NCBI GenBank assembly: GCA_965197745.1
Contig: CBDANS010000006.1
Span: 1,344,001 to 1,408,000 of the forward strand
Direction: 5' to 3'
DNA length: 64,000 nt
From: Opitutales bacterium
Lineage (GTDB): Bacteria; Verrucomicrobiota; Verrucomicrobiia; Opitutales; PNEW01
Each line of letters opens with the position of its first letter. The first letter of the stretch is position 1. Below, piece by piece: positions 33,239-53,440 of the stretch. The translations under genes and the position numbers were made by a program. The notes below the pieces were generated by a model, which saw only the letters and a program-made list of their open reading frames with translations, was not told where the DNA came from and did not search any database.

Positions 33239-33437
33239 CGATTGCCGATTTCGAACATGATGCACGATGCAAGATCCAGGGTGGTTGGACAATGATCTCA
33301 TCGATAATAGCTAGATGTCAGGCAATTAGGTGGAACGCGCTGTCCCTAGTGCGTTGAGGATATCGGACGCAAAAGACATACCCCTGGAATGGAAGATGTC
33401 GGGCTTCGCCCTCGGTACGGATTTCGGATTGGAGGGA

Positions 33438-33539
33438 TTCGCCGCAGAGACGCAGAGTACGCAAAGTTAGTATATAAAATTTTGTTTTTGTATTATTCAT
33501 AAACTAAAATCTCAGCGCTCTCAGCGCCTCTGCGGTTAA
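33438..33539. repeat. ACCGCAGAG-family inverted-repeat element
   Basis: TTCGCCGCAGAGACGCAGAG ... CTCAGCGCTCTCAGCGCCTCTGCGGTTAA. Confidence 0.8.
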
Positions 33540-33585
33540 TTTGCCAAAAAACAATCGACAATCGCAAATCGGCAATCCGAAATTG

Positions 33586-35699: not shown

Positions 35700-35754
35700 T
35701 GTTTATAAGATAGCCACATAAAGCACAAAAGGCACAAGAGAGTTTTTATAAAAT

Positions 35755-35887
35755 TGTCATTGCGAAAGAGGTGAAAACCAACCTCGGCTACCGAGCGCAG
35801 CGACATCTTTCAATCCATGTGTATGTAGGACGCCTATTGACAATCCCCTGGATCGCCGCAGTCGGCCACGCCTCCTTCGCGATGACA
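35755..35887. repeat. TGTCATTGCG...CGC(A/G)ATGACA family element
   Basis: Terminal inverted repeat; related copies at 13456-13498 (half), 38791-38897 and 59984-60219. Confidence 0.8.
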
Positions 35888-36071
35888 ATTAAAATAAATT
35901 GATTTAAACTCATTCTGAAATTCAATGAACGCGATCATCCTTCGCCCGGTTGCCAATGACCGACATGCACCACGTGGCCCTACATTCATTAAATTTCTCA
36001 ATTGTGTTATTTGCGGCCAACTCTTTCTTTTGGCTATCCTGCATCCTGGATCCCGCATCCTGCATCATGAT

Positions 36072-37430
36072 TTACTCATCTTCTAATAATGCCCCGCTGA
36101 GGCTTTGGGTATCAAGGGTTCGGGTTACACGGAAAATTCCGGAGGGACCGAGAGGTGAACCGATATAGACAAAAATATGTTGCACTCCTCGCTTTTCATC
36201 AATTATCGCGGCCCCGGGATGCATCCCGTCAATTTCAGATCTGCTCATGAATCCATTCCTGTGAAGCAGGGTTCCTTCAAATCGCCATTCATTGCTTCCA
36301 TTTTTCAGTTTATCGGGGTCGATGCTCCAGAGGTTGAGCGTTTGACCATCGCGCGCATTCTGTGGACCTTTGCCTGCATCGCCGTTGCGGTCGGTAGCGA
36401 CGCATTCTATACGCTTGCTCACCGGATTGTAGCTCAAGTCAACGGTGTCCTGTGTCCATGCACCGTGAGAAGGGCTTTCGCTTATGTCGCGGACATCGGT
36501 AGCGCGAATCGTAGAGAGCATGGGTTTGAATGGAAACCAACCTTTCCTGGCATAAAGCTGAACATATCTCCAGGTATTAGAACGGGGTTCGAAACTTTCA
36601 TACCCGTGACATCTTGCGACCACTAGAATGGCTCCATCATGCAGTAATAGCGTAGGTTCAATGGGTGTGGCAAAGTCCGGGAATACCTGTTTTTTCTCTT
36701 TCCAGGTATTGCCCCCGTTTTTTGAATAACGTATCCATATTTCTGGCGGAACATAGGGTGTTCCATCGGGATTTCGTTTATCAGCCAGCGCGTTGCTATG
36801 GCCGGCGACAATGAGACCGCGGGTTGGATGGTCGAGAAGACGCGGACCGTTATTCGTTTGCGGTCCTGAAAGTTGCTCTTCGCCAAATGCACCGGGAAGA
36901 TGTTCCCAGGTTTTACCCTCATCTTCTGATCGGAAAACCCCGTAATTGGTCACCACGACTACCGTGCCATCCCTTGTCGTTCCGATAGAATTTCCAAAGT
37001 CCAAACGACACCCAACGGTTTCACTATTAATGAAAGATTTCAAATCAACTGGATTGGACCATGATTTTCCACCGTCCGTAGAGCGCGTCATCATTGTATA
37101 GGTGCTAAATTCATCACGTGGTTCACTCCCGCCCCAATGAAAAGGCAGTCGATAGAAAACAACGATCATGGTTTCCCCTGACATGGTTGCTACCGGCCAG
37201 CCGAAATGATTGTTATGGGTATGAAGATTTTCACCTTCAGGTAAGACGACGTGGACGAGTTCCAGCATACCCGCTGTTTTTTTCAGGAGCGCTTTAGAAC
37301 GCTCATTCAATTGTAATAGATTCATAATATAGGTTTCAGATGAGTGACTCACTGCATGGATCAGACCGGCCGAAATTTCCAGCAATAGTAAAATTATTAA
37401 AGTTCTCTGGAGATTTAGTGGTTTATTCAA
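36072..37430 (-). CDS. Secreted BNR/Asp-box (sialidase-like) protein
   Basis: Asp boxes STDGGKSW, SEDEGKTW, SKNGGNTW; probable TTG start with signal peptide (start uncertain). Confidence 0.75.
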   Translation of the reverse strand: MNKPLNLQRTLIILLLLEISAGLIHAVSHSSETYIMNLLQLNERSKALLKKTAGMLELVHVVLPEGENLHTHNNHFGWPVATMSGETMIVVFYRLPFHWGGSEPRDEFSTYTMMTRSTDGGKSWSNPVDLKSFINSETVGCRLDFGNSIGTTRDGTVVVVTNYGVFRSEDEGKTWEHLPGAFGEEQLSGPQTNNGPRLLDHPTRGLIVAGHSNALADKRNPDGTPYVPPEIWIRYSKNGGNTWKEKKQVFPDFATPIEPTLLLHDGAILVVARCHGYESFEPRSNTWRYVQLYARKGWFPFKPMLSTIRATDVRDISESPSHGAWTQDTVDLSYNPVSKRIECVATDRNGDAGKGPQNARDGQTLNLWSIDPDKLKNGSNEWRFEGTLLHRNGFMSRSEIDGMHPGAAIIDEKRGVQHIFVYIGSPLGPSGIFRVTRTLDTQSLSGALLEDE

Positions 37431-37653
37431 TGTTAGATTTCGACCTACAGCCGCGGGACTCGGTAGCCAATTGTCGATTGAAGAGATTAACCGCAAAGAC
37501 GCGGAGAACGCAGAGTTTATGCTTAAAATTCTTGTTTGTACTGTTCATAATCTAATTCTCTGCGACTAAGCGGTTAATTTACTAATAACTATCGACAATG
37601 TTATATATTCGCTTTTCGCATCATTGCATTTACGCATTACCACATACGCGCAT

Positions 37654-38223
37654 TCACTCATTTTCCATCAAAGCCTTGCGGAGGCGGTGGGCGCGCTCCC
37701 CGATGGGAAGTTGAAAGTTGGGGACGGGTTCATTGGCTTGATCAACTTTCCAGACGAAGACGAGAGGACCTTTCCCTTCGAAGAGAAGGTCGAGCTTTTG
37801 GTCAAAGTCAGTGTCATCGGTAAGGGTATAAACTGCTTCAATACCAGCGCCACGCGCAATTGTTTCATAATTTATTTTACCGGCACCCGGCACGAATTGA
37901 TTACCGGTTATTTCGTAGGTGCCGTTTTCAATGATCACGAGGGCATAATTTTCAACCGGTCTTTGGGCGACAGTAACAAGCGTTCCTAAACACATAAGCA
38001 TACTGCCGTCCCCGTTAAGGGTAATGACTCGGCGGTCGGGTCGGGCGATGGCGAGGCCATGGGCCAGGTCTGCGGCGTGTCCCATACCACTGTCAACCGA
38101 GGCAAAATCAAATGGTCCGTCAGATAAATTTTCCCAGGGTTTGGCGGTACCCATGTTAGTGATAATTATCTCGTCCTTGCGACGAGCGGCTAACTTCTCA
38201 AGACAGGTATATTTATTAAGCAT
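37654..38223 (-). CDS. ThDP-dependent decarboxylase beta subunit (ComE-like)
   Basis: GDGSMLM...EN ThDP-binding motif; adjacent alpha subunit. Confidence 0.85.
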   Translation of the reverse strand: MLNKYTCLEKLAARRKDEIIITNMGTAKPWENLSDGPFDFASVDSGMGHAADLAHGLAIARPDRRVITLNGDGSMLMCLGTLVTVAQRPVENYALVIIENGTYEITGNQFVPGAGKINYETIARGAGIEAVYTLTDDTDFDQKLDLLFEGKGPLVFVWKVDQANEPVPNFQLPIGERAHRLRKALMENE

Positions 38224-45887: not shown

Positions 45888-46742
45888 ATGAAAAGTTTCT
45901 ATGAATTCCAAAAGCAATTCCCTAACGATGAAGCATGTTTGCAACGTATTATGGTTGAGCGCTATGGTGGCACAGAGCTTGACTGCCCAAAATGTGACGC
46001 TTTTAGTAAGTTTTATCGCATGACAAGAGATCGTGGATATGTATGCCAACACTGTGGTCATCATCTTTACCCATGTGTTGGAACACTTATGGGGAATACC
46101 CACCTTCCTCTCCATAAGTGGTTCTACGCCATGTATTTGTTTTCTACTTCTCGGCATGGTGTTGCAGCAATGGAACTGAGTCGGCAACTTGACGTGCCAT
46201 ACAAAACCGCATGGCGTATGGCGCACGAAATTCGCAAATATATGGCGGACGTTGACGGTGAAAATACTTTGAAAGGTATTGTAGAAGCCGACGAAATCTA
46301 TATTTGGGGGAGACATTCTGGGGGCAAGCGTGGACGTGGTGCATCTAATAAAACGGTGGTCTTTGGGATGCTTGAACGTAACGGCGAAATAATGACTAAA
46401 ATTGTTCCTAATGTTCGCAAACACGTCCTTCAACCCATTGTTAAAGAAAACGTGAAACAAGGAAGCATAATGCATACTGATGAACTCCGATCTTATAATG
46501 GGATTAATAAAATTGGTTATAGGCATAGAACTGTTAATCACGGGGATGGCGAATATAGTCGGGGAGATATTCATGTTAACGGGATTGAGGGGTTCTGGGC
46601 GCGCTTGAAGCTTTCGATACGCGGGACGCACGTCCACGTTTCGAAGAAGCATCTCCAGAAATATGTGAAGGAGTTTGAATATCGCTACAATCGTCGGGAT
46701 TGGCCGAACGCGATTTTTGGGGATTTGGTCGCAAATCTTTAG
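45888..46742 (+). CDS. IS1595 transposase (Zn ribbon + HTH + DDE, ISXO2-like)
   Basis: CPKC..CQHC, YKTAWRM, EADE, HTDE, NGIEGFW and EFEYRYN motifs. Confidence 0.95.
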   Translation: MKSFYEFQKQFPNDEACLQRIMVERYGGTELDCPKCDAFSKFYRMTRDRGYVCQHCGHHLYPCVGTLMGNTHLPLHKWFYAMYLFSTSRHGVAAMELSRQLDVPYKTAWRMAHEIRKYMADVDGENTLKGIVEADEIYIWGRHSGGKRGRGASNKTVVFGMLERNGEIMTKIVPNVRKHVLQPIVKENVKQGSIMHTDELRSYNGINKIGYRHRTVNHGDGEYSRGDIHVNGIEGFWARLKLSIRGTHVHVSKKHLQKYVKEFEYRYNRRDWPNAIFGDLVANL

Positions 46743-47285: not shown

Positions 47286-48426
47286 TTGAGATGGCATTGT
47301 AAAAACAGATGTTTATACCTGCGAAGTTATTTAGTATTATTACTAATAGCAGGAATGTCATCTTGCTCTGACTCATCCCAAAAAAACAAAGCGGATCAAA
47401 GGCCAAATATCCTTTTGCTGGTTGCTGATGATCTGGGGGATGCTGATCTTGGGTGTTATGGCGGTGATATCGAAACACCAAATATTGATAATTTAGCCGC
47501 CGCTGGCTTGAGGTTCAGCAGATTTTATACTTCCCCACTCTGCGCTCCTTCAAGAGCAATGCTACTTTCAGGAAATGATAATCACATAGCTGGAATGGGT
47601 AGGCAACACCTCCGCACCAGTGAATTTGGATATGAGGGAATGTTGACAGATCGTGTAGCAACAATTCCACAAGTGCTCAGAAACGCCGGTTACCATACAT
47701 ACATGGCTGGGAAATGGCACCTCGGGATGGACAATCCTCACTTAAAAGGATTTGAACATTCTTTCGTGCTTATTGGAGGTGGAGCAAACCACTATGACGA
47801 CCAGGGGTTCATGGCTGATACGCCCGTTTCATTATATACCGAGGATGGGCAACCTGCTCGCTGGGAAGGAGGTAACTACTCCACTGATTTTTATACCGAC
47901 AAACTCATAGAATACATAGACCGTCATCAAGGAGATCGAAAACCCTTCTTTGCTTATGCTGCATATACGTCACCGCATTGGCCTTTGCAGGTAGATGAAT
48001 CATACTGGAAAAAATATGCAGGTCGTTATGATGACGGCTACGAAGAATTAAAAGAAAGACGGCTGGAAAGTCTCAAAAATGCAGGAATGATACCCGAAGA
48101 CGCAGTCTTACCTCCCAATCATGAAATGGTGAAGCCATGGGATTCCTTGACTGCAGAAGAAATGAAAAAGGAATCTAGAAAAATGGAGCTATACGCAGGA
48201 ATGGTTGATAATCTGGATTTAAATATCGGTAGATTAATACAGCACTTAAAACACATTGGCGAATATGAAAACACCTTGATAGTTTTTATCTCTGATAATG
48301 GAGCTGCCGCCGAAGATTTCTATTACCATGAATATTTTGGCCCATTTATTCGGGAACATTTTAATGATGACTATGAGAGTATGGGAAAACCTAACTCTTT
48401 TATATCCTCTGGTCCTCAATGGGCAG
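47286..48426 (+). pseudogene. Arylsulfatase (AtsA-like) truncated by IS3
   Basis: DDLG, CAPSRAMLLSG, GKWHLG and SDNG motifs; homology stops at GPQWA where the IS3 end begins. Confidence 0.88.
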
Positions 48427-49500
48427 TGGTCGTGACCACGAAAACTGGTCCACTTGAAAAGTTAGTCTGGGACACCTAGAAAGGACTCAGACAATGAAAG
48501 GCAAAAGCTATACAACCGAAGAGAAGATACGGATGCTGCGGCAGGCGGACAAAGGGAAAACGATCCTGGAAGCATGCCGCGAGAACAACATAAGCGAACA
48601 GAGCTTCCACCGCTGGAAGCGTGAGTTTGGGATGATTGATGTCAACCAGGCCAAGCGGATGAAGGAACTCGAGAAGGAGAACGCGCGGTTAAAACGGATG
48701 CTGGCGGACAAGCTGCTGGGGATAGAGATCCTGCAGGAGACGCTTGAAAAAAAATGGTAGATGTCGCTTATGCTCGGTAGTAAGCCCTGGGCACAAGCGG
48801 CAAGTGGCAGAGAGACTTGTGGCTCGGGGCCAGTGTTCGATGCGAGCGGGGTGCCGGTACTTTCGGCTGCACCGTTGCACCTATGCGTATAGGGCCAAGC
48901 AACCGGATGCTTGGTTAATGAAACTGAAGGCGGCAGTAAGGCGGTTATCACGGCAATAGGCGAGGTGGGGCTATCCGAAGATCACGAAGCTGCTGAAGGA
49001 CGAAGGCTGGCAGATGGGTAAACGTCTGCGACGTGATCAGGGCTGGCGATCCCCCCCACGCAAGCCAAGACGCCGGCGCAGGGGTGTCTCCACCGGGCTG
49101 CCGACCAAGGCCGAACATCCCGGCCATGTTTGGACCTGGGATTTTATCCACGATAAGACGGTCCGCGGTGGCAGTTTAAAAATGTTGTCCGTGCTCGATG
49201 AGTAGACCCGCGAGTGCCGGGTGATCCATGTCGATCGCCATATCAATGCGGAGACGGTGCGCGGTCTCATGCAAAAACTGTTCGACTGGCATGGACCTCC
49301 ACCATTTATCCGTAGCGACTATGGATCGGTTCCGAGGGAAGCGCTCATGCTTAAACCAAGAGTGGTTTCTAAGCGTTACCGAAACGCGTGTTGTCATCCA
49401 TGCGTGGAAGCAAAATACAATGCCCAACACCCTCATTGTCGGCTAGGCTTTCTCTGTCTCAACGCTTTTGCCAAACGCTTGCAGGAACTCAATCCAACAG
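48427..49500 (+). mobile_element. Decayed IS3-family element (orfA intact; orfB with stops and deletions; right end not found)
   Basis: Begins TGGTCGTGACCACGAAAACTGGTCCAC; orfA 48494-48760 ends KKW on an A8 run; orfB fragments WTWDF, DE*TREC, RSDYG; right boundary approximate. Confidence 0.85.
48494..48760 (+). CDS. IS3 OrfA
   Basis: YTTEEKI..ISEQSFHRWK..LEKENARLK. Confidence 0.9.
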   Translation: MKGKSYTTEEKIRMLRQADKGKTILEACRENNISEQSFHRWKREFGMIDVNQAKRMKELEKENARLKRMLADKLLGIEILQETLEKKW

Positions 49501-49568
49501 GTCCTGGCTTTAGGTTATGCGCTGAATGTAAGAATCTGGTTAAAGATTAATCAATTAAAATACTATTA

Positions 49569-49904
49569 TTAGGGCCATATTAAAGAATCCCAATTTTTCG
49601 ACTTAGCCAAATTCTCTTCAGCCCATTTTCGTTTCCAAATAGACAGAGAGTATCGAACACCTTTACGCGGTGGTTTAGGGAGGTCTTTAGTAAAATAACC
49701 TACATCTTTCTCAAAGTAAGAGGCAATCTTACATAAATTTTTAAATGTAATATTCTGCTCGCCTCTCTCAACTCTGCCGATGTAGCTGCGATCAAGTTTG
49801 ATTTTTTTGGCTAGTTTCTCTTGTGATACGCCTTTTTGATCCCTGACTAAGCGAATCCTGTCTCCAAGTTCGTATAATGCACGGGTTGGAAGATCTAAAG
49901 CCAT
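49569..49904 (-). CDS. XRE-family HTH regulator, RM controller (C-protein)-like
   Basis: SQEKLA..LDRSYIGRVERGEQNIT. Confidence 0.88.
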   Translation of the reverse strand: MALDLPTRALYELGDRIRLVRDQKGVSQEKLAKKIKLDRSYIGRVERGEQNITFKNLCKIASYFEKDVGYFTKDLPKPPRKGVRYSLSIWKRKWAEENLAKSKNWDSLIWP

Positions 49905-50136: not shown

Positions 50137-51012
50137 ATGAAATCAAGGTTAAGACAAACATTTAGAACCAAAAAATATTCAGTGGCACGGTTAACGATGA
50201 TGGCAAAAGACGCGATCAAAAGTGCTGAGGATCATCAACGAAGCGCCATCGATTCTGTCAAGGAAGCCGGGGACTTGCTCATTAAATTAAAAAGCCGTGT
50301 TAAAAAGATACGAGACTCAGATACTGGGAGGTTGATGTATAATTGGGAAGATTGGGTAGTGGGAAACATTGGGATTTCGGCTCGGTCTGCTCAAGATTAT
50401 ATGCAGATTGCTAGAAAGTGGAACAAATTAGCAGAGGAAGCACGAAAGGGTAATCTAAGTAAAGACCGAGCACTGCGAATTCTCCGAGGTAAAGAAGACA
50501 ATCAACCAAGCCCAACACCTGATACTCCAGAGCAACCAGGAATTAGGCTTAGGGGTAAACAATTGAGAATACGTGAAGCTCGGAGAGATCTTAGCAGACG
50601 CATAAATGGATTCATCGGAAGATGCACCGACGATGAAGTGCTATTTTTGGTAGAACAGGATAATATGGAGCTATTGAACAGGGTATTTAAGAAACTGTGT
50701 AATCAAATAAAGCCTATTGCTCCTATATTGGTTAAAGCTGAGGAAAAGCGCAACAACCCACCTGATCATTTACTACATGCAGACTACGAAGAAGATGAAG
50801 GGTATGAGGAGAAGCAGGAATATTTTAAAAAAATAGATTTAAAAATTCTTGAACACTTCAAGCAACGGAATGACTTAACACCATACCAACGCAAACAAAT
50901 ACTAAAAGCAGTTGGTGGAAAAAAAGGATGCCATGGGAAAAGATTGTTAATTGAACATTTAGTATCGCATGAATCAGATAGCCAAAGGGAACGGATTGAT
51001 CAGGCAGCATAA
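50137..51012 (+). CDS. DUF3102-like phage/plasmid protein
   Basis: EAGDLLIKLK..WEDWV..ISARSAQDYMQIA. Confidence 0.7.
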   Translation: MKSRLRQTFRTKKYSVARLTMMAKDAIKSAEDHQRSAIDSVKEAGDLLIKLKSRVKKIRDSDTGRLMYNWEDWVVGNIGISARSAQDYMQIARKWNKLAEEARKGNLSKDRALRILRGKEDNQPSPTPDTPEQPGIRLRGKQLRIREARRDLSRRINGFIGRCTDDEVLFLVEQDNMELLNRVFKKLCNQIKPIAPILVKAEEKRNNPPDHLLHADYEEDEGYEEKQEYFKKIDLKILEHFKQRNDLTPYQRKQILKAVGGKKGCHGKRLLIEHLVSHESDSQRERIDQAA

Positions 51013-51499
51013 AATAACGTAGGTATAAAGATGCTTGAAGTGTCCTGACGAAACGATATTTGGCGGGAATGACGCAGGAAGGCTTTTTTCTGGCACCCAG
51101 AGGACATGAAATGTTTTCCAGGGCATTGTGGTTGTGGGATATGGGCATAGTGCCGTCAGATTTAACTCTTGACGTCGAGGAATCCCTTGGTTATACATGC
51201 CTATGTGTTCTGCCTTACTTAAGGGTAAAACTTCTCTAAGGCCCCAGAGATCGAATTCAAAACTACCTCTAAGTAAGCAGAATGACCCATTCTATAAAAT
51301 GGGCAAGCTACTGGTAATCAATAACCTGAGCATGTCAAGGTTTTAAAAGTAATTAAAAATTAAGATAATAAGTATATAATATAGCTATAGCAGGTGTGGC
51401 AACGGTGCAGATATCTAGACCTGCATCGGGGTACGTTTACTTGATCGCGTGCCCAGCTGCCCAAATTTTTTAAATCGAGATAAAAAGAAAGATCGACAA

Positions 51500-53440
51500 A
51501 TGACAAAAGAATCAGAGGATGCCCCAAGGGTTTACAGCTATATCAGGTTTAGCACACCTGAACAGGCACAGGGGGACTCAGAACGACGGCAGATAAAAGC
51601 AGCCAAAGCGTTTGCTGAGAAAAAGAGTTTGGCGTTAGATAATGAACTCCAAATGACTGATCGTGGGTATAGTGGCTATCACGGTACCCACAGGAAAAAA
51701 GGCTCACTAGGCATCTTTCTAGAAAGAGTAAATGAAGGTGAAGTGCCAAGAGGAAGTTATTTGATAATCGAGAACCTTGACCGTTTGAGCCGTGAAGGTG
51801 TTATCAATACCCTTCAGAATATCGTGTTAAACATAATCGATAATGGGATCACGATTCAAACGCTTTACCCAGAGCAGGATTATTCAAAAGAAAATATCGA
51901 TGACAAGATTATTGAGTTTATTGCTCACCTGCAAAGAGCCCATGCAGAGAGTGACCGAAAGAGCTATCTACTAAAGGAGGTATGGAAACACAAAAGGAAG
52001 CAGATAAGAGAAAATAAGGGGAAACTAACCAATATATGTCCAAACTGGTTAAGAGTTGAAGGTGATGAATTTAAAATCATAGAGGAAGCAGCAACAACAG
52101 TGAAGATGATCTTTGATATGAAGAATGACGGTTTGAGCATTCGGGCAATCGAAAGAAAATTAAATGCGGAGGCACCTTGGAAACCACCATATAACCCGAA
52201 ACGAATCGGGGAGGGTTGGCGTTGCAGTTACATCAATAAGATACTCAGAACCCGAGCCGTCATTGGAGAATTTCAGCCATACCGATATGTTGTGGATGAG
52301 TTGACTGATGAAAGAAAAAGAGAAAAAGATGGAGATCCAATAGCCAGTTATTACCCTGCAGTCGTTGATCCTAACTTATTCAATACAGTTCAGCAAAAGT
52401 TGGATGAGATAAAAGCTACCCGACACAATGGTGGTGGACGCAAGGGCAAGGTGGGCAATCTATTTACGCATATTGCAAAGTGTGGATACTGTGATGGTAG
52501 TATGCATTATGTTTCTAAAGGCAATGGACCAAAATACGGGCGGTATCTTGTATGCGATAATGGAAATAGAGGTGTAATTAAAAATGGTAAACGAGTTTGT
52601 GAATCTCATTCAGTAAGGTATGACGAGTTTGAGCAGATCGTTTTAAAGAACTGCCGTCGATTGAAACCTCAGCAAGTGTTACCGAACGAGGACGAGCAAA
52701 AAGAAATATGTCGTAATTTACAGACACGAATTACAGGTCAGGAAATCGAGATTAAGGATATTGAAAAAAGAAGGGAAATATTGCTCGATCAACTTTCAAG
52801 AACTGAAGATGAGGAAGCACGTAGTGAATATGAAAAGTTAAGAGGCCAATTACTTGAGGATATTAAGAATCGAAAAAATACGATAGAGAACGATCAGACT
52901 GCACTAAGGAAGACTGAACACAGTAGCCAGTCATTTAAAAAATGGCAAAAAGATATTGAGTCACTGTTTAAAGCACTGAAGAGCGGAGATGTTGACATAC
53001 GATTAAAAATGCAAGCGCATCTAAAAGAATTCATTGAGCGAATAGATGTTTATGGTAAAGGTGGTGAGGATACAATAGATAACATAGATGAAATAATTGG
53101 CGAATGCGGTATGGCTAGCGATTGGGGTAAGGTTAATAGGGGAGCATACAAGAACTTCATGCGTTATATCCGCGAACAGTGTCTGTCTTCGAAAGGACGC
53201 TTTTATCAAATACACCTTAAAAATTTCACTGCCAGGACAAAAGAGAGAGTAATGAAGAACGGTAAGCGTATAGTTCTGGGTAGATCATCACGTATTGTAC
53301 CAATTCAAGTTGCACCAAAAAGTAGCCTTGCTTATCGAATGGAGTTAATAGAGGACGAAGATGGGAAAAAAGGCTCGCGTCATTTTGGGCCAAAATTAGA
53401 GTTGTTAAGTAATGATTTCTTTGATAATCGCAAACGATGA
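51500..53440 (+). CDS. Large serine recombinase
   Basis: YSYIRFS, DRGYSG, ENLDRLSR, recombinase domain YYPAVV, Zn ribbon CGYC..C..C, coiled coil; start ATG 51500. Confidence 0.95.
   Translation: MTKESEDAPRVYSYIRFSTPEQAQGDSERRQIKAAKAFAEKKSLALDNELQMTDRGYSGYHGTHRKKGSLGIFLERVNEGEVPRGSYLIIENLDRLSREGVINTLQNIVLNIIDNGITIQTLYPEQDYSKENIDDKIIEFIAHLQRAHAESDRKSYLLKEVWKHKRKQIRENKGKLTNICPNWLRVEGDEFKIIEEAATTVKMIFDMKNDGLSIRAIERKLNAEAPWKPPYNPKRIGEGWRCSYINKILRTRAVIGEFQPYRYVVDELTDERKREKDGDPIASYYPAVVDPNLFNTVQQKLDEIKATRHNGGGRKGKVGNLFTHIAKCGYCDGSMHYVSKGNGPKYGRYLVCDNGNRGVIKNGKRVCESHSVRYDEFEQIVLKNCRRLKPQQVLPNEDEQKEICRNLQTRITGQEIEIKDIEKRREILLDQLSRTEDEEARSEYEKLRGQLLEDIKNRKNTIENDQTALRKTEHSSQSFKKWQKDIESLFKALKSGDVDIRLKMQAHLKEFIERIDVYGKGGEDTIDNIDEIIGECGMASDWGKVNRGAYKNFMRYIREQCLSSKGRFYQIHLKNFTARTKERVMKNGKRIVLGRSSRIVPIQVAPKSSLAYRMELIEDEDGKKGSRHFGPKLELLSNDFFDNRKR

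Follow-up and report, generated by a model that had tools for sequence, protein, structure and literature searches.

We found that 23 additional nucleotides at the frameshift site of an IS3-family element are, with a probability of about 0.8, one old insertion of a lineage-specific hairpin micro-repeat (the module), and that the variant of the element carrying it would then have spread or persisted; from the junctions that the modules form we infer that they move as single strands. The element lies in a stretch of 64,000 nucleotides from a marine Opitutales bacterium, which we call the window. It was compared with its paralogues in the genome G000 (7 contigs, 4.45 Mb), in the two sister genomes G001 and G002 and in further genomes, the comparison covering 61 genomes.

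The way in which hairpin repeats of the REP, SDR and Ssn types spread is an old open question, and filled and empty alleles of one and the same site are rarely available. In G000 and the two sister genomes such pairs are numerous, for a unit of only 23-44 nt, and for those pairs that lie inside transposase genes the reading frame fixes the junction to the base. The genomes also provide a short list of candidate enzymes, so that one small protein and a set of oligonucleotides would suffice to put the question to the test. With regard to insertion sequences, this would be a case of a frameshift signal disabled by an insertion into its spacer, and of modules as joints between different IS copies.

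The frameshift junction and the age of the insert

The following features of the window are concerned (here and below, a caret marks the joint between target and module):

47286..48427, plus strand: sulfatase gene (PF00884) into which the IS has inserted, 5' part
48428..49337, plus strand: 5' 910 nt of the IS3-family element, left end TGGTCGTGACCACG..., decayed (BLAST against about 45 genomic copies)
48494..48760, plus strand: orfA, 88 codons, ending in ..LEKKW and then TAG, which straddles the left edge of the insert in the window copy
48744..49337, plus strand: remnant of orfB, in the +1 frame relative to orfA, with in-frame TAG at 48957-48959 and 49203-49205 and an internal deletion near 49030
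48747..48754, plus strand: slippery A8 run (A AAA AAA A), where the outgroups have A7G instead
48755..48779, minus strand: micro-module, in minus-strand reading TACCGA, a GC-ATAA-GC mini-hairpin, GACATC and the tail TACCA
48784..48830, plus strand: stem-loop GCCCTGGGCACAAG..CTTGTGGCTCGGGGC (folding), presumed stimulator of -1 frameshifting
49329..49337, plus strand: head of a second module (GTTCCGAGG) at the SDNGS^EF catalytic motif, where homology to this IS stops
49338..49509, plus strand: 3' piece of another IS3-family element (91% identity to C7:1676831-1677002), without a right inverted repeat

In the window copy, the A8 run is followed by TGG, TA (48758-59), the 21-mer GATGTCGCTTATGCTCGGTAG (48760-48780), a second TA (48781-82) and AGCCCT, so the letters at 48758..48782 are exactly those given by the sequence-only reading from which this work started. 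On the opposite strand the 21-mer reads CTACCGAGCATAAGCGACATC; the window contains it a single time, as against not at all in 100 shuffled sequences. The net insertion amounts to 23 nt, the edges of which can be placed only within about 3 nt (e.g. 48758-48780 or 48760-48782), and the module lies antisense to the transposase, between A8 and the downstream stem-loop. Removal of the module together with one TA, as had been reconstructed earlier, indeed gives the correct frames, with orfA ending in EKKW* and orfB reading KKMVSPGHKR.

The assignment of the host element to the IS3 family is based on an intact paralogue, whose OrfA matches HTH_Tnp_1 (PF01527, 3.6e-20) and whose OrfB matches HTH_21 (PF13276), rve (PF00665, 1.7e-22) and rve_3 (PF13683, 4.2e-26). 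Full-length copies measure 1317 bp with the second module and 1286 bp without it, and have TG..CA ends and the terminal inverted repeats TGGTCGTGACC... and ...CCCGACCA, only the left one of which is present in the window copy. Target duplications of the IS copies themselves were mostly unrecognisable in the six copies inspected. In the intact short copies and in the outgroups, orfB overlaps orfA in the -1 frame at an A-rich slippery heptamer with an accompanying structure, whereas the window copy has orfB in the +1 frame.

The junction is covered by 45 distinct loci in G000 (from 46 BLAST rows, in which one locus was counted twice), of which eight are long (+23 nt) and 37 are short. The short copies read GAAAAAAAA-CTG/CGG-TAAGCCC, with orfA ending in ..LEKKL* and orfB reading KKTVSPGHKR in the -1 frame. 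Two of them (C7:1352654 and C7:406740) are intact and canonical, possessing an 88-aa orfA and an open orfB of 354 codons in the -1 frame, and two further short copies are intact as a single fused frame of 415 codons. The outgroup elements from G016, G012 and G040, which represent three other families of the same order, have A7G-TTG/TTA-TAA/TGA-GCCCC and are short in 3/3 cases. Since paralogues, intact copies and outgroups are short, we regard the short form as ancestral and the 23 nt as an insertion. The sequence-only reading had expected intact copies to lack exactly 23 nt at this position, which holds for the 37 short loci, the two canonical intact ones included, and for all outgroups; the canonical layout of the short paralogues and outgroups likewise agrees with its claim that an ordinary IS3 -1 frameshift junction had been hit.

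That reading had also implied a recent hit on this particular copy. However, the insertion is old: it carries substitutions and is common to a set of copies in three genomes of two genera. The long junction is found, with substitutions, at the eight loci in G000 and at 9/10 loci fetched from G001 and G002. Within the long copies the hairpin varies (TTATGC, TTACGC, TTAAGC, TTACAC, CATACGC), and the base after TGG may be T, A, C or G. Two copies in G002 have the canonical tail TTCCA (TGGAAGATGTC on the plus strand), and the IS copies of this genome match the strict module pattern. Because these copies keep the canonical tail, the T that creates the left TA has to have arisen later, and in some copies only. 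When one genome per species was scanned for the long junction (185,579 species, a set that may lack the records of G000 and G002), a single outside record came up, an Opitutales MAG with five loci.

Transposase expression and fate of the long copies

In the short form, the helix GCCCTGGGCACAAG/CTTGTG.CTCGGGGC starts 6 nt after A8, as compared with 29 nt in the window copy. Its role as a stimulator follows from what is known of the IS3 family, and the z-scores of the fold, only -1.7 and -1.4, give it modest support. Having a length of 2 modulo 3, the insert shifts orfB out of the -1 frame and into the +1 frame; in the window copy the -1 frame stops at 48778-48780 and a -1 slip meets TAG after ten codons. 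Since orfB lies in the +1 frame, a -1 slip soon ends at TAG and the stem-loop is 29 nt off, we infer from these junctions that the usual way of producing OrfAB is closed to the long variant, and in this respect the earlier claim of a broken OrfAB stands. Among the 17 module-bearing copies examined, no copy is intact.

The course of events that we propose would begin with an element possessing A7G or A8, a 6-nt spacer, the stem-loop and orfB in the -1 frame. A module would then have inserted antisense between A8 and the stem-loop, with the probable loss of canonical OrfAB, and the module-bearing variant may have spread or persisted as a non-autonomous passenger, be it by trans-mobilisation by intact short copies, by duplication or by recombination between copies. 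The window copy would have decayed further after the insertion.

Trees of three IS segments show the long copies as deep, paraphyletic and scattered branches and the short copies as two recent bursts, and the presence or absence of the insert is incongruent with the phylogeny of its flanks. By those trees, the long form could look ancestral within this bacterial family, the short form having arisen by a 23-nt deletion that restored or created a canonical -1 site: long copies form the deepest and most diverged branches in all three trees, and they are the majority in the sister genomes. Such a polarity is nevertheless very unlikely, considering that the outgroups from other families are all short and have the classical A AAA AAG heptamer, that the 23 nt match a repeat family at 85 unrelated sites, that all intact copies are short, and that the short bursts read CTG, while a clean excision from the long form would leave TGG. 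The opposite step, from short to long, needs one more base change at the junction (CGG/CTG to TGG). Short outgroups and trees together mean that the long variant was once common and that copies recombined, and they do not overturn the polarity; the incongruence itself needs either recombination between copies or the survival of a rare short lineage. It is also highly improbable that the module is a functional recoding device, with which OrfAB would be made through the loss of one A from A8 in transcription or through a +1 ribosomal shift, adding eight residues (..KNGRCRLCSVVSPGHKR). No long copy among the 17 has an intact orfB, the variable base after TGG results in TAG, AAG, CAG or GAG without any apparent coding constraint, the module is antisense and comes from a mostly intergenic repeat family, and intact short copies are available to act in trans; these points outweigh the +1 frame that is open through the module into orfB (ORF 48744-48959) and the long variant's persistence in three genomes at numerous loci, where two of the G002 copies are identical. 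An old insertion into a short, canonical junction is therefore the reading that we prefer.

The window copy is moreover a chimera, in which the first element is joined at a module to the 3' end of a different IS3-type element. At the joint near 49338, the SDNGS-site module of one element meets the RLRD-site module of the other, and modules appear to act as recombination joints between different IS copies. The second module (GTTCCGAGGAGCGAAGCGACGACATGC(G/A)AAGCCA, net +31 nt) is present at SDNGS^EF in 36/42 long copies of this IS, at IS positions 893-925 of most G000 copies (e.g. C6:570163-570196); five IS copies are empty at this site, and in the window copy the element breaks off at the module. 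A second IS3-type element, the flanks of which have diverged, has a near-identical module at its homologous SDNGS^EF site, which suggests either site-specific insertion or exchange between the elements.

A different change of the transposase frames is seen in C4:136859, C7:1901266 and a burst of about 20 copies, named 'B', which have one extra base (CTC-GAGAAGG to CTCTTTGAAGG) about 80 nt before A8. It puts orfA and orfB in a single frame of 415 codons, the end of OrfA being replaced by out-of-frame residues, and the fused transposase would consequently need no frameshift.

Beside the IS fragment, there are open reading frames at 49569-49904 (minus strand), 50137-51012 (plus strand, kind unassigned) and 51449-53440 (plus strand, 663 aa). 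We take the first, small one to resemble an XRE-type repressor and the third to resemble a large serine recombinase. The remainder of the sulfatase gene may have been lost to an integrated element, the edge of which would lie in this region. Upstream, an ORF of 284 aa (45888-46742, plus strand) has a zinc-ribbon-like N-terminus and presumably resembles the transposases of the IS1595 type.

The module family and its mode of insertion

The insert had been taken for one member of a dispersed family of micro-modules, and this proved right, as the family is present genome-wide and other sites have filled and empty alleles as well. Its consensus is TACCGA, a variable hairpin and GACATCTTCC(A). The pattern TACCGAG-N3-30-GACATC has 92 copies in G000, seven at this IS site and 85 elsewhere, the module of the eighth long copy being degenerate; in the 85 other modules the tail TTCCA is matched, position by position, by 61, 69, 58, 78 and 81 of 85. 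A stricter pattern that includes the tail finds 49, 68 and 84 copies in G000, G001 and G002, respectively, 6, 5, 3 and 2 copies in four other genomes of the order and none in the remaining 54, and a reversed control pattern has no match in the 61 genomes. In the distant genomes, the core of the module stands in quite different flanks. The hairpin occurs in three size classes with inner lengths of 7, 11 and 18 nt, and its stem covaries: 96/108 cells are paired as compared with a mean of 85 after shuffling, 0/1000 shuffles reach the observed value, and compensatory stems such as GGAC/GTCC, GCGT/ACGC and GGTT/AACC are found. The orientation of modules relative to GC skew is unbiased (32:23 vs 14:16, p = 0.37).

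Rfam models at the gathering threshold matched only tRNA in the whole window and nothing at any module, and full-text literature searches for the motif strings returned only unrelated primers. As far as these searches reach, the combination of this sequence family, its nesting in GIY-YIG-associated hairpins, its junction rule and its hits in transposase genes is undescribed.

The sequence-only reading had interpreted the TA on either side of the insert as a target-site duplication and had proposed to look for flanking duplications at other module copies. This part has to be given up. An equivalent dinucleotide duplication is present in 3/85 other modules, with about five expected by chance, and other direct-repeat tests gave 0-2/85. 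Read in the orientation of the module, the upstream TA is part of the IS's own CTTAC, and the downstream TA exists only in those copies in which a T of the module tail has become A (TTCCA to TACCA); the two flanking TAs are coincidental. Although TA on both sides of the insert is reminiscent of the TA-duplicating elements of the IS630 or Tc1-mariner kind, we rejected such an identity for the module, which has no inverted ends and whose apparent duplication is as rare among the other modules as stated and absent from older copies of the same insertion.

Filled and empty alleles reveal how the modules are joined to their targets. In addition to three unrelated non-IS repeats, we compared the GTCAT hairpin repeats at one site, GGC^AATCC, where the empty form (..GGC^AATCCAGG) is present 71 times and the filled form (..GGC^TACCGAG-hairpin-GACATCTTCC^A(T/A)TCCAGG) 43 times, in many combinations of outer and inner hairpins; one filled hairpin keeps AATCCAGG intact. 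The second IS3-type element contributes four empty alleles, G^AATATACG, G^AGTTCATT, C^AAAACGG and G^AGTGTTTG. At every compared site, the 5' edge of the module is exactly T(A/T)CCGAG after C or G, and its 3' end is ...C followed by A. Nothing is duplicated, and five cases have lost one target base following that A. The frameshift site follows the same rule, with CTTAC^AG-T8 becoming CTTAC, module and A-T8, again with edges defined within about 3 nt. Judging by these junctions, the modules enter DNA without target duplication, probably by a single-strand, hairpin-directed process with an enzyme acting in trans.

Elements that depend on single-strand hairpins likewise insert without target duplication beside a short target motif. 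Their two hairpin ends differ from each other and they include a transposase gene, unless they are derivatives, which measure at least about 100 nt, whereas a module as a whole consists of 23-35 nt with one hairpin.

The orfB of the second IS3-type element contains up to four different modules, at LID^EYTREC, SDNGS^EF, PW^QNG and RLRD^ECLN, with filled and empty copies in ratios of, e.g., 13 vs 4, 13 vs 3, 3 vs about 25 and 7 vs about 25.

A role in inactivating mobile DNA, on which the sequence-only reading had speculated, is not supported. IS3-type genes have at least six distinct sites of module insertion. The IS DNA is unselected and amounts to about 100 kb, for which, by a rough reckoning, the intergenic density of modules predicts at least as many hits; since the distinct hits thus seem to be no more than expected for unselected DNA, no dedicated anti-IS function is needed. 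The modules rather behave like ordinary intergenic repeats, since few true modules are located in long open frames, as opposed to 69% of random sites. This comparison uses a loose pattern (TACCGA without G), of which 34 matches lie inside long open frames, by eye about 13 of them true modules, with seven at the IS site; the pattern also caught a coding repeat (GTACCGATCGCGGT..GACATCGATGCC), so counts and gene-overlap figures derived from it are inflated. The strict pattern was applied to the flank and duplication counts only.

Syntenic intergenic spacers (33253-33567, 35700-36097 and 37420-37677) are mosaics of different small repeats when compared between G000 and its sisters, one of them, which has a module in G000 and measures 355 nt there, being module-free and 128 and 120 nt long in the sisters. 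Syntenic intergenic regions of the three genomes differ in module content and are too diverged for base-exact junctions. Turnover in the spacers is fast.

Candidate enzymes and related repeat systems

The best, if unproven, candidate for a mobiliser is a GIY-YIG nuclease of about 97 aa (Ssn-like), which we put forward tentatively. G000 has eight matches to PF01541, four of which are small GIY-YIG genes flanked by inverted GTCAT...AATCCAGG hairpins, and three of the eight have a TACCGAG module at most 100 nt upstream, nested in the upstream flanking hairpin. The units measure about 420 bp and consist of the gene between the inverted hairpins:

C7:1541880-1542360: GIY-YIG unit, locus C7:1542004
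C7:1545540-1546000: GIY-YIG unit, locus C7:1545659
C7:483500-484000: GIY-YIG unit, locus C7:483646
C6:787800-788350: GIY-YIG unit, locus C6:787949

Hairpin-flanked homologues exist in G001, G002 and G015. A hairpin-flanked protein with a single GIY-YIG domain (PF01541, 3.5e-13) is the architecture of the Ssn type; the nearest solved structure is UPF0213 BH0048 (1.6e-5), and the NCBIfam match is below threshold. Close homologues (at least 63% identity) are limited to G000, G001, G002 and G015 among the 61 genomes, all of them hairpin-flanked, and these are the four genomes with the most modules. G040, G059 and G053 have 5, 3 and 2 modules, respectively, without a close homologue. The genome contains 155 GTCAT hairpin heads, mostly gene-less.

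A more speculative picture, to which we would give somewhat less credit than to the candidate itself, is that the modules, at 23 nt, represent the smallest type of mobile DNA in bacteria, moved single-stranded by an Ssn-like nuclease whose hairpins they invade, and that their landings in IS3 elements act as a brake on those elements. If an Ssn-like nuclease does move the modules, their junctions would be the first footprint of how hairpin repeats of the Ssn/CGTC type multiply.

Other ways of movement are less probable. A REP-associated tyrosine (HUH, Y1) transposase, acting in place of the GIY-YIG nuclease on modules that would be elements of the REP type, is quite unlikely to be the mobiliser. 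The modules are hairpins with a conserved tag which insert without duplication, and single-strand transposition of the IS200/IS605 type likewise involves hairpins and no duplication; G000 also has one PF01797 gene with the HYH motif. However, this sole Y1 gene is broken into pieces of 199 aa and 175 aa in two frames and has no modules in its flanks, and its homologues, present in 23/61 genomes, do not track module numbers, many of these genomes being module-free and G040 having 63 Y1 matches but only five modules. For these reasons, a RAYT was rejected as the mobiliser. GTAG REPs, including intragenic ones, are abundant in Opitutus terrae of the same order according to PMC3733652, but on the strand of the modules where GTAG reads it follows on the 3' side of the hairpin, with TCG in between, which is not the arrangement of GTAG REPs. 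We also consider it rather unlikely that no transposition is involved and that the modules are short patches templated by other module-bearing sequences, through template switching or gene conversion at small hairpins. The exact 5' edge at every compared site, targets that share only C/G and then A without any longer homology, and a core that is kept in unrelated flanks from one bacterial family to another, suggesting that a protein recognises it, are at odds with such patches, although these would fit the lack of duplication, the junctions with small changes or a one-base loss, the identical module of 31-34 nt at the homologous SDNGS^EF site of two IS3-type elements with diverged flanks, the chimeric window copy joined at a module, and the incongruence between presence or absence and the trees. 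Insertion of a micro-repeat that moves as a single strand thus remains the preferred reading.

In kind, the modules seem to be closest to the SDR of Nostocaceae, and they are also close to tagged REPs. The SDR were reportedly described by Elhai et al. in 2008 as repeats of about 21-27 nt, some of them hairpins, which are inserted in other repeats or mobile elements and whose enzyme is said not to be known. The modules are also shown to be inserted by filled and empty sites, namely the IS junction, three other repeats, the GTCAT hairpins and four sites of the second IS. There is no sequence relation, the likeness being one of kind and not of membership. In later papers, SDR are cited as 'very small mobile repeated elements' (PMC3116915, PMC2884548, PMC5861425), and one of them states that SDR-like repeats were absent outside Nostocaceae in the cyanobacteria that it considered (PMC5861425). 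Unlike SDR, the modules belong to Verrucomicrobiota (Opitutales), have conserved single-stranded tags on both sides of a stem that varies and covaries, and show a link to hairpin-flanked GIY-YIG genes.

For the Ssn system, in which SsnA is a single-domain GIY-YIG nuclease acting on ssDNA, Chenal et al. 2025 give the layout NTS-ssnA-NTS, with NTS being CGTCAT...AATCYRG (PMC11893778). The local GIY-YIG genes resemble it in that their inverted flanking hairpins start with GTCAT and end in AATCCAGG and in that gene-less GTCAT hairpins are abundant; TACCGAG modules are nested in such hairpins and co-occur with the gene in 4/61 genomes. In that study, the Opitutales genomes of Supplementary Data 4 have a fold enrichment of approximately 0.6-1.2 and no high-confidence cd10448 call, what Ssn proteins are shown to do is to cut ssDNA, not to move repeats, and NTS are rarely located inside genes (PMC11893778). 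The local repeats differ in that the published degenerate SRM motif, HGTCWYN(0-2)YYVSBRHN(0-5)WNVSBRGN(0-2)RNCYNB, matches none of them (0/92 modules and 0/146 local GTCAT heads); in the genome it has 16 matches vs 19 for the reversed pattern, and is thus not enriched. To our knowledge, no Ssn protein moves DNA.

REP and REPIN sequences with their RAYTs comprise GTAG- and CGTC-tagged REPs (Bertels & Rainey 2011, PMC3116915; Di Nocera et al. 2013, PMC3733652). In the latter source, tagged REPs are hairpins of 20-40 nt, mostly intergenic and often in inverted pairs, and intragenic insertions are most numerous in Opitutus terrae (PMC3733652). The modules are also tagged hairpins and mostly intergenic. 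They differ from REPs in having no module-flanked RAYT and another arrangement of the tag, and in that they break the reading frames of IS genes instead of being tolerated in frame. The combination typical of GTAG REPs, with GTAG directly 5' of the stem and a repeat-flanked RAYT, is absent from the modules, in which GTAG occurs on the opposite strand only. The Y1 HUH transposase matches in G040 are mostly open frames of 300-350 aa and represent a large expansion.
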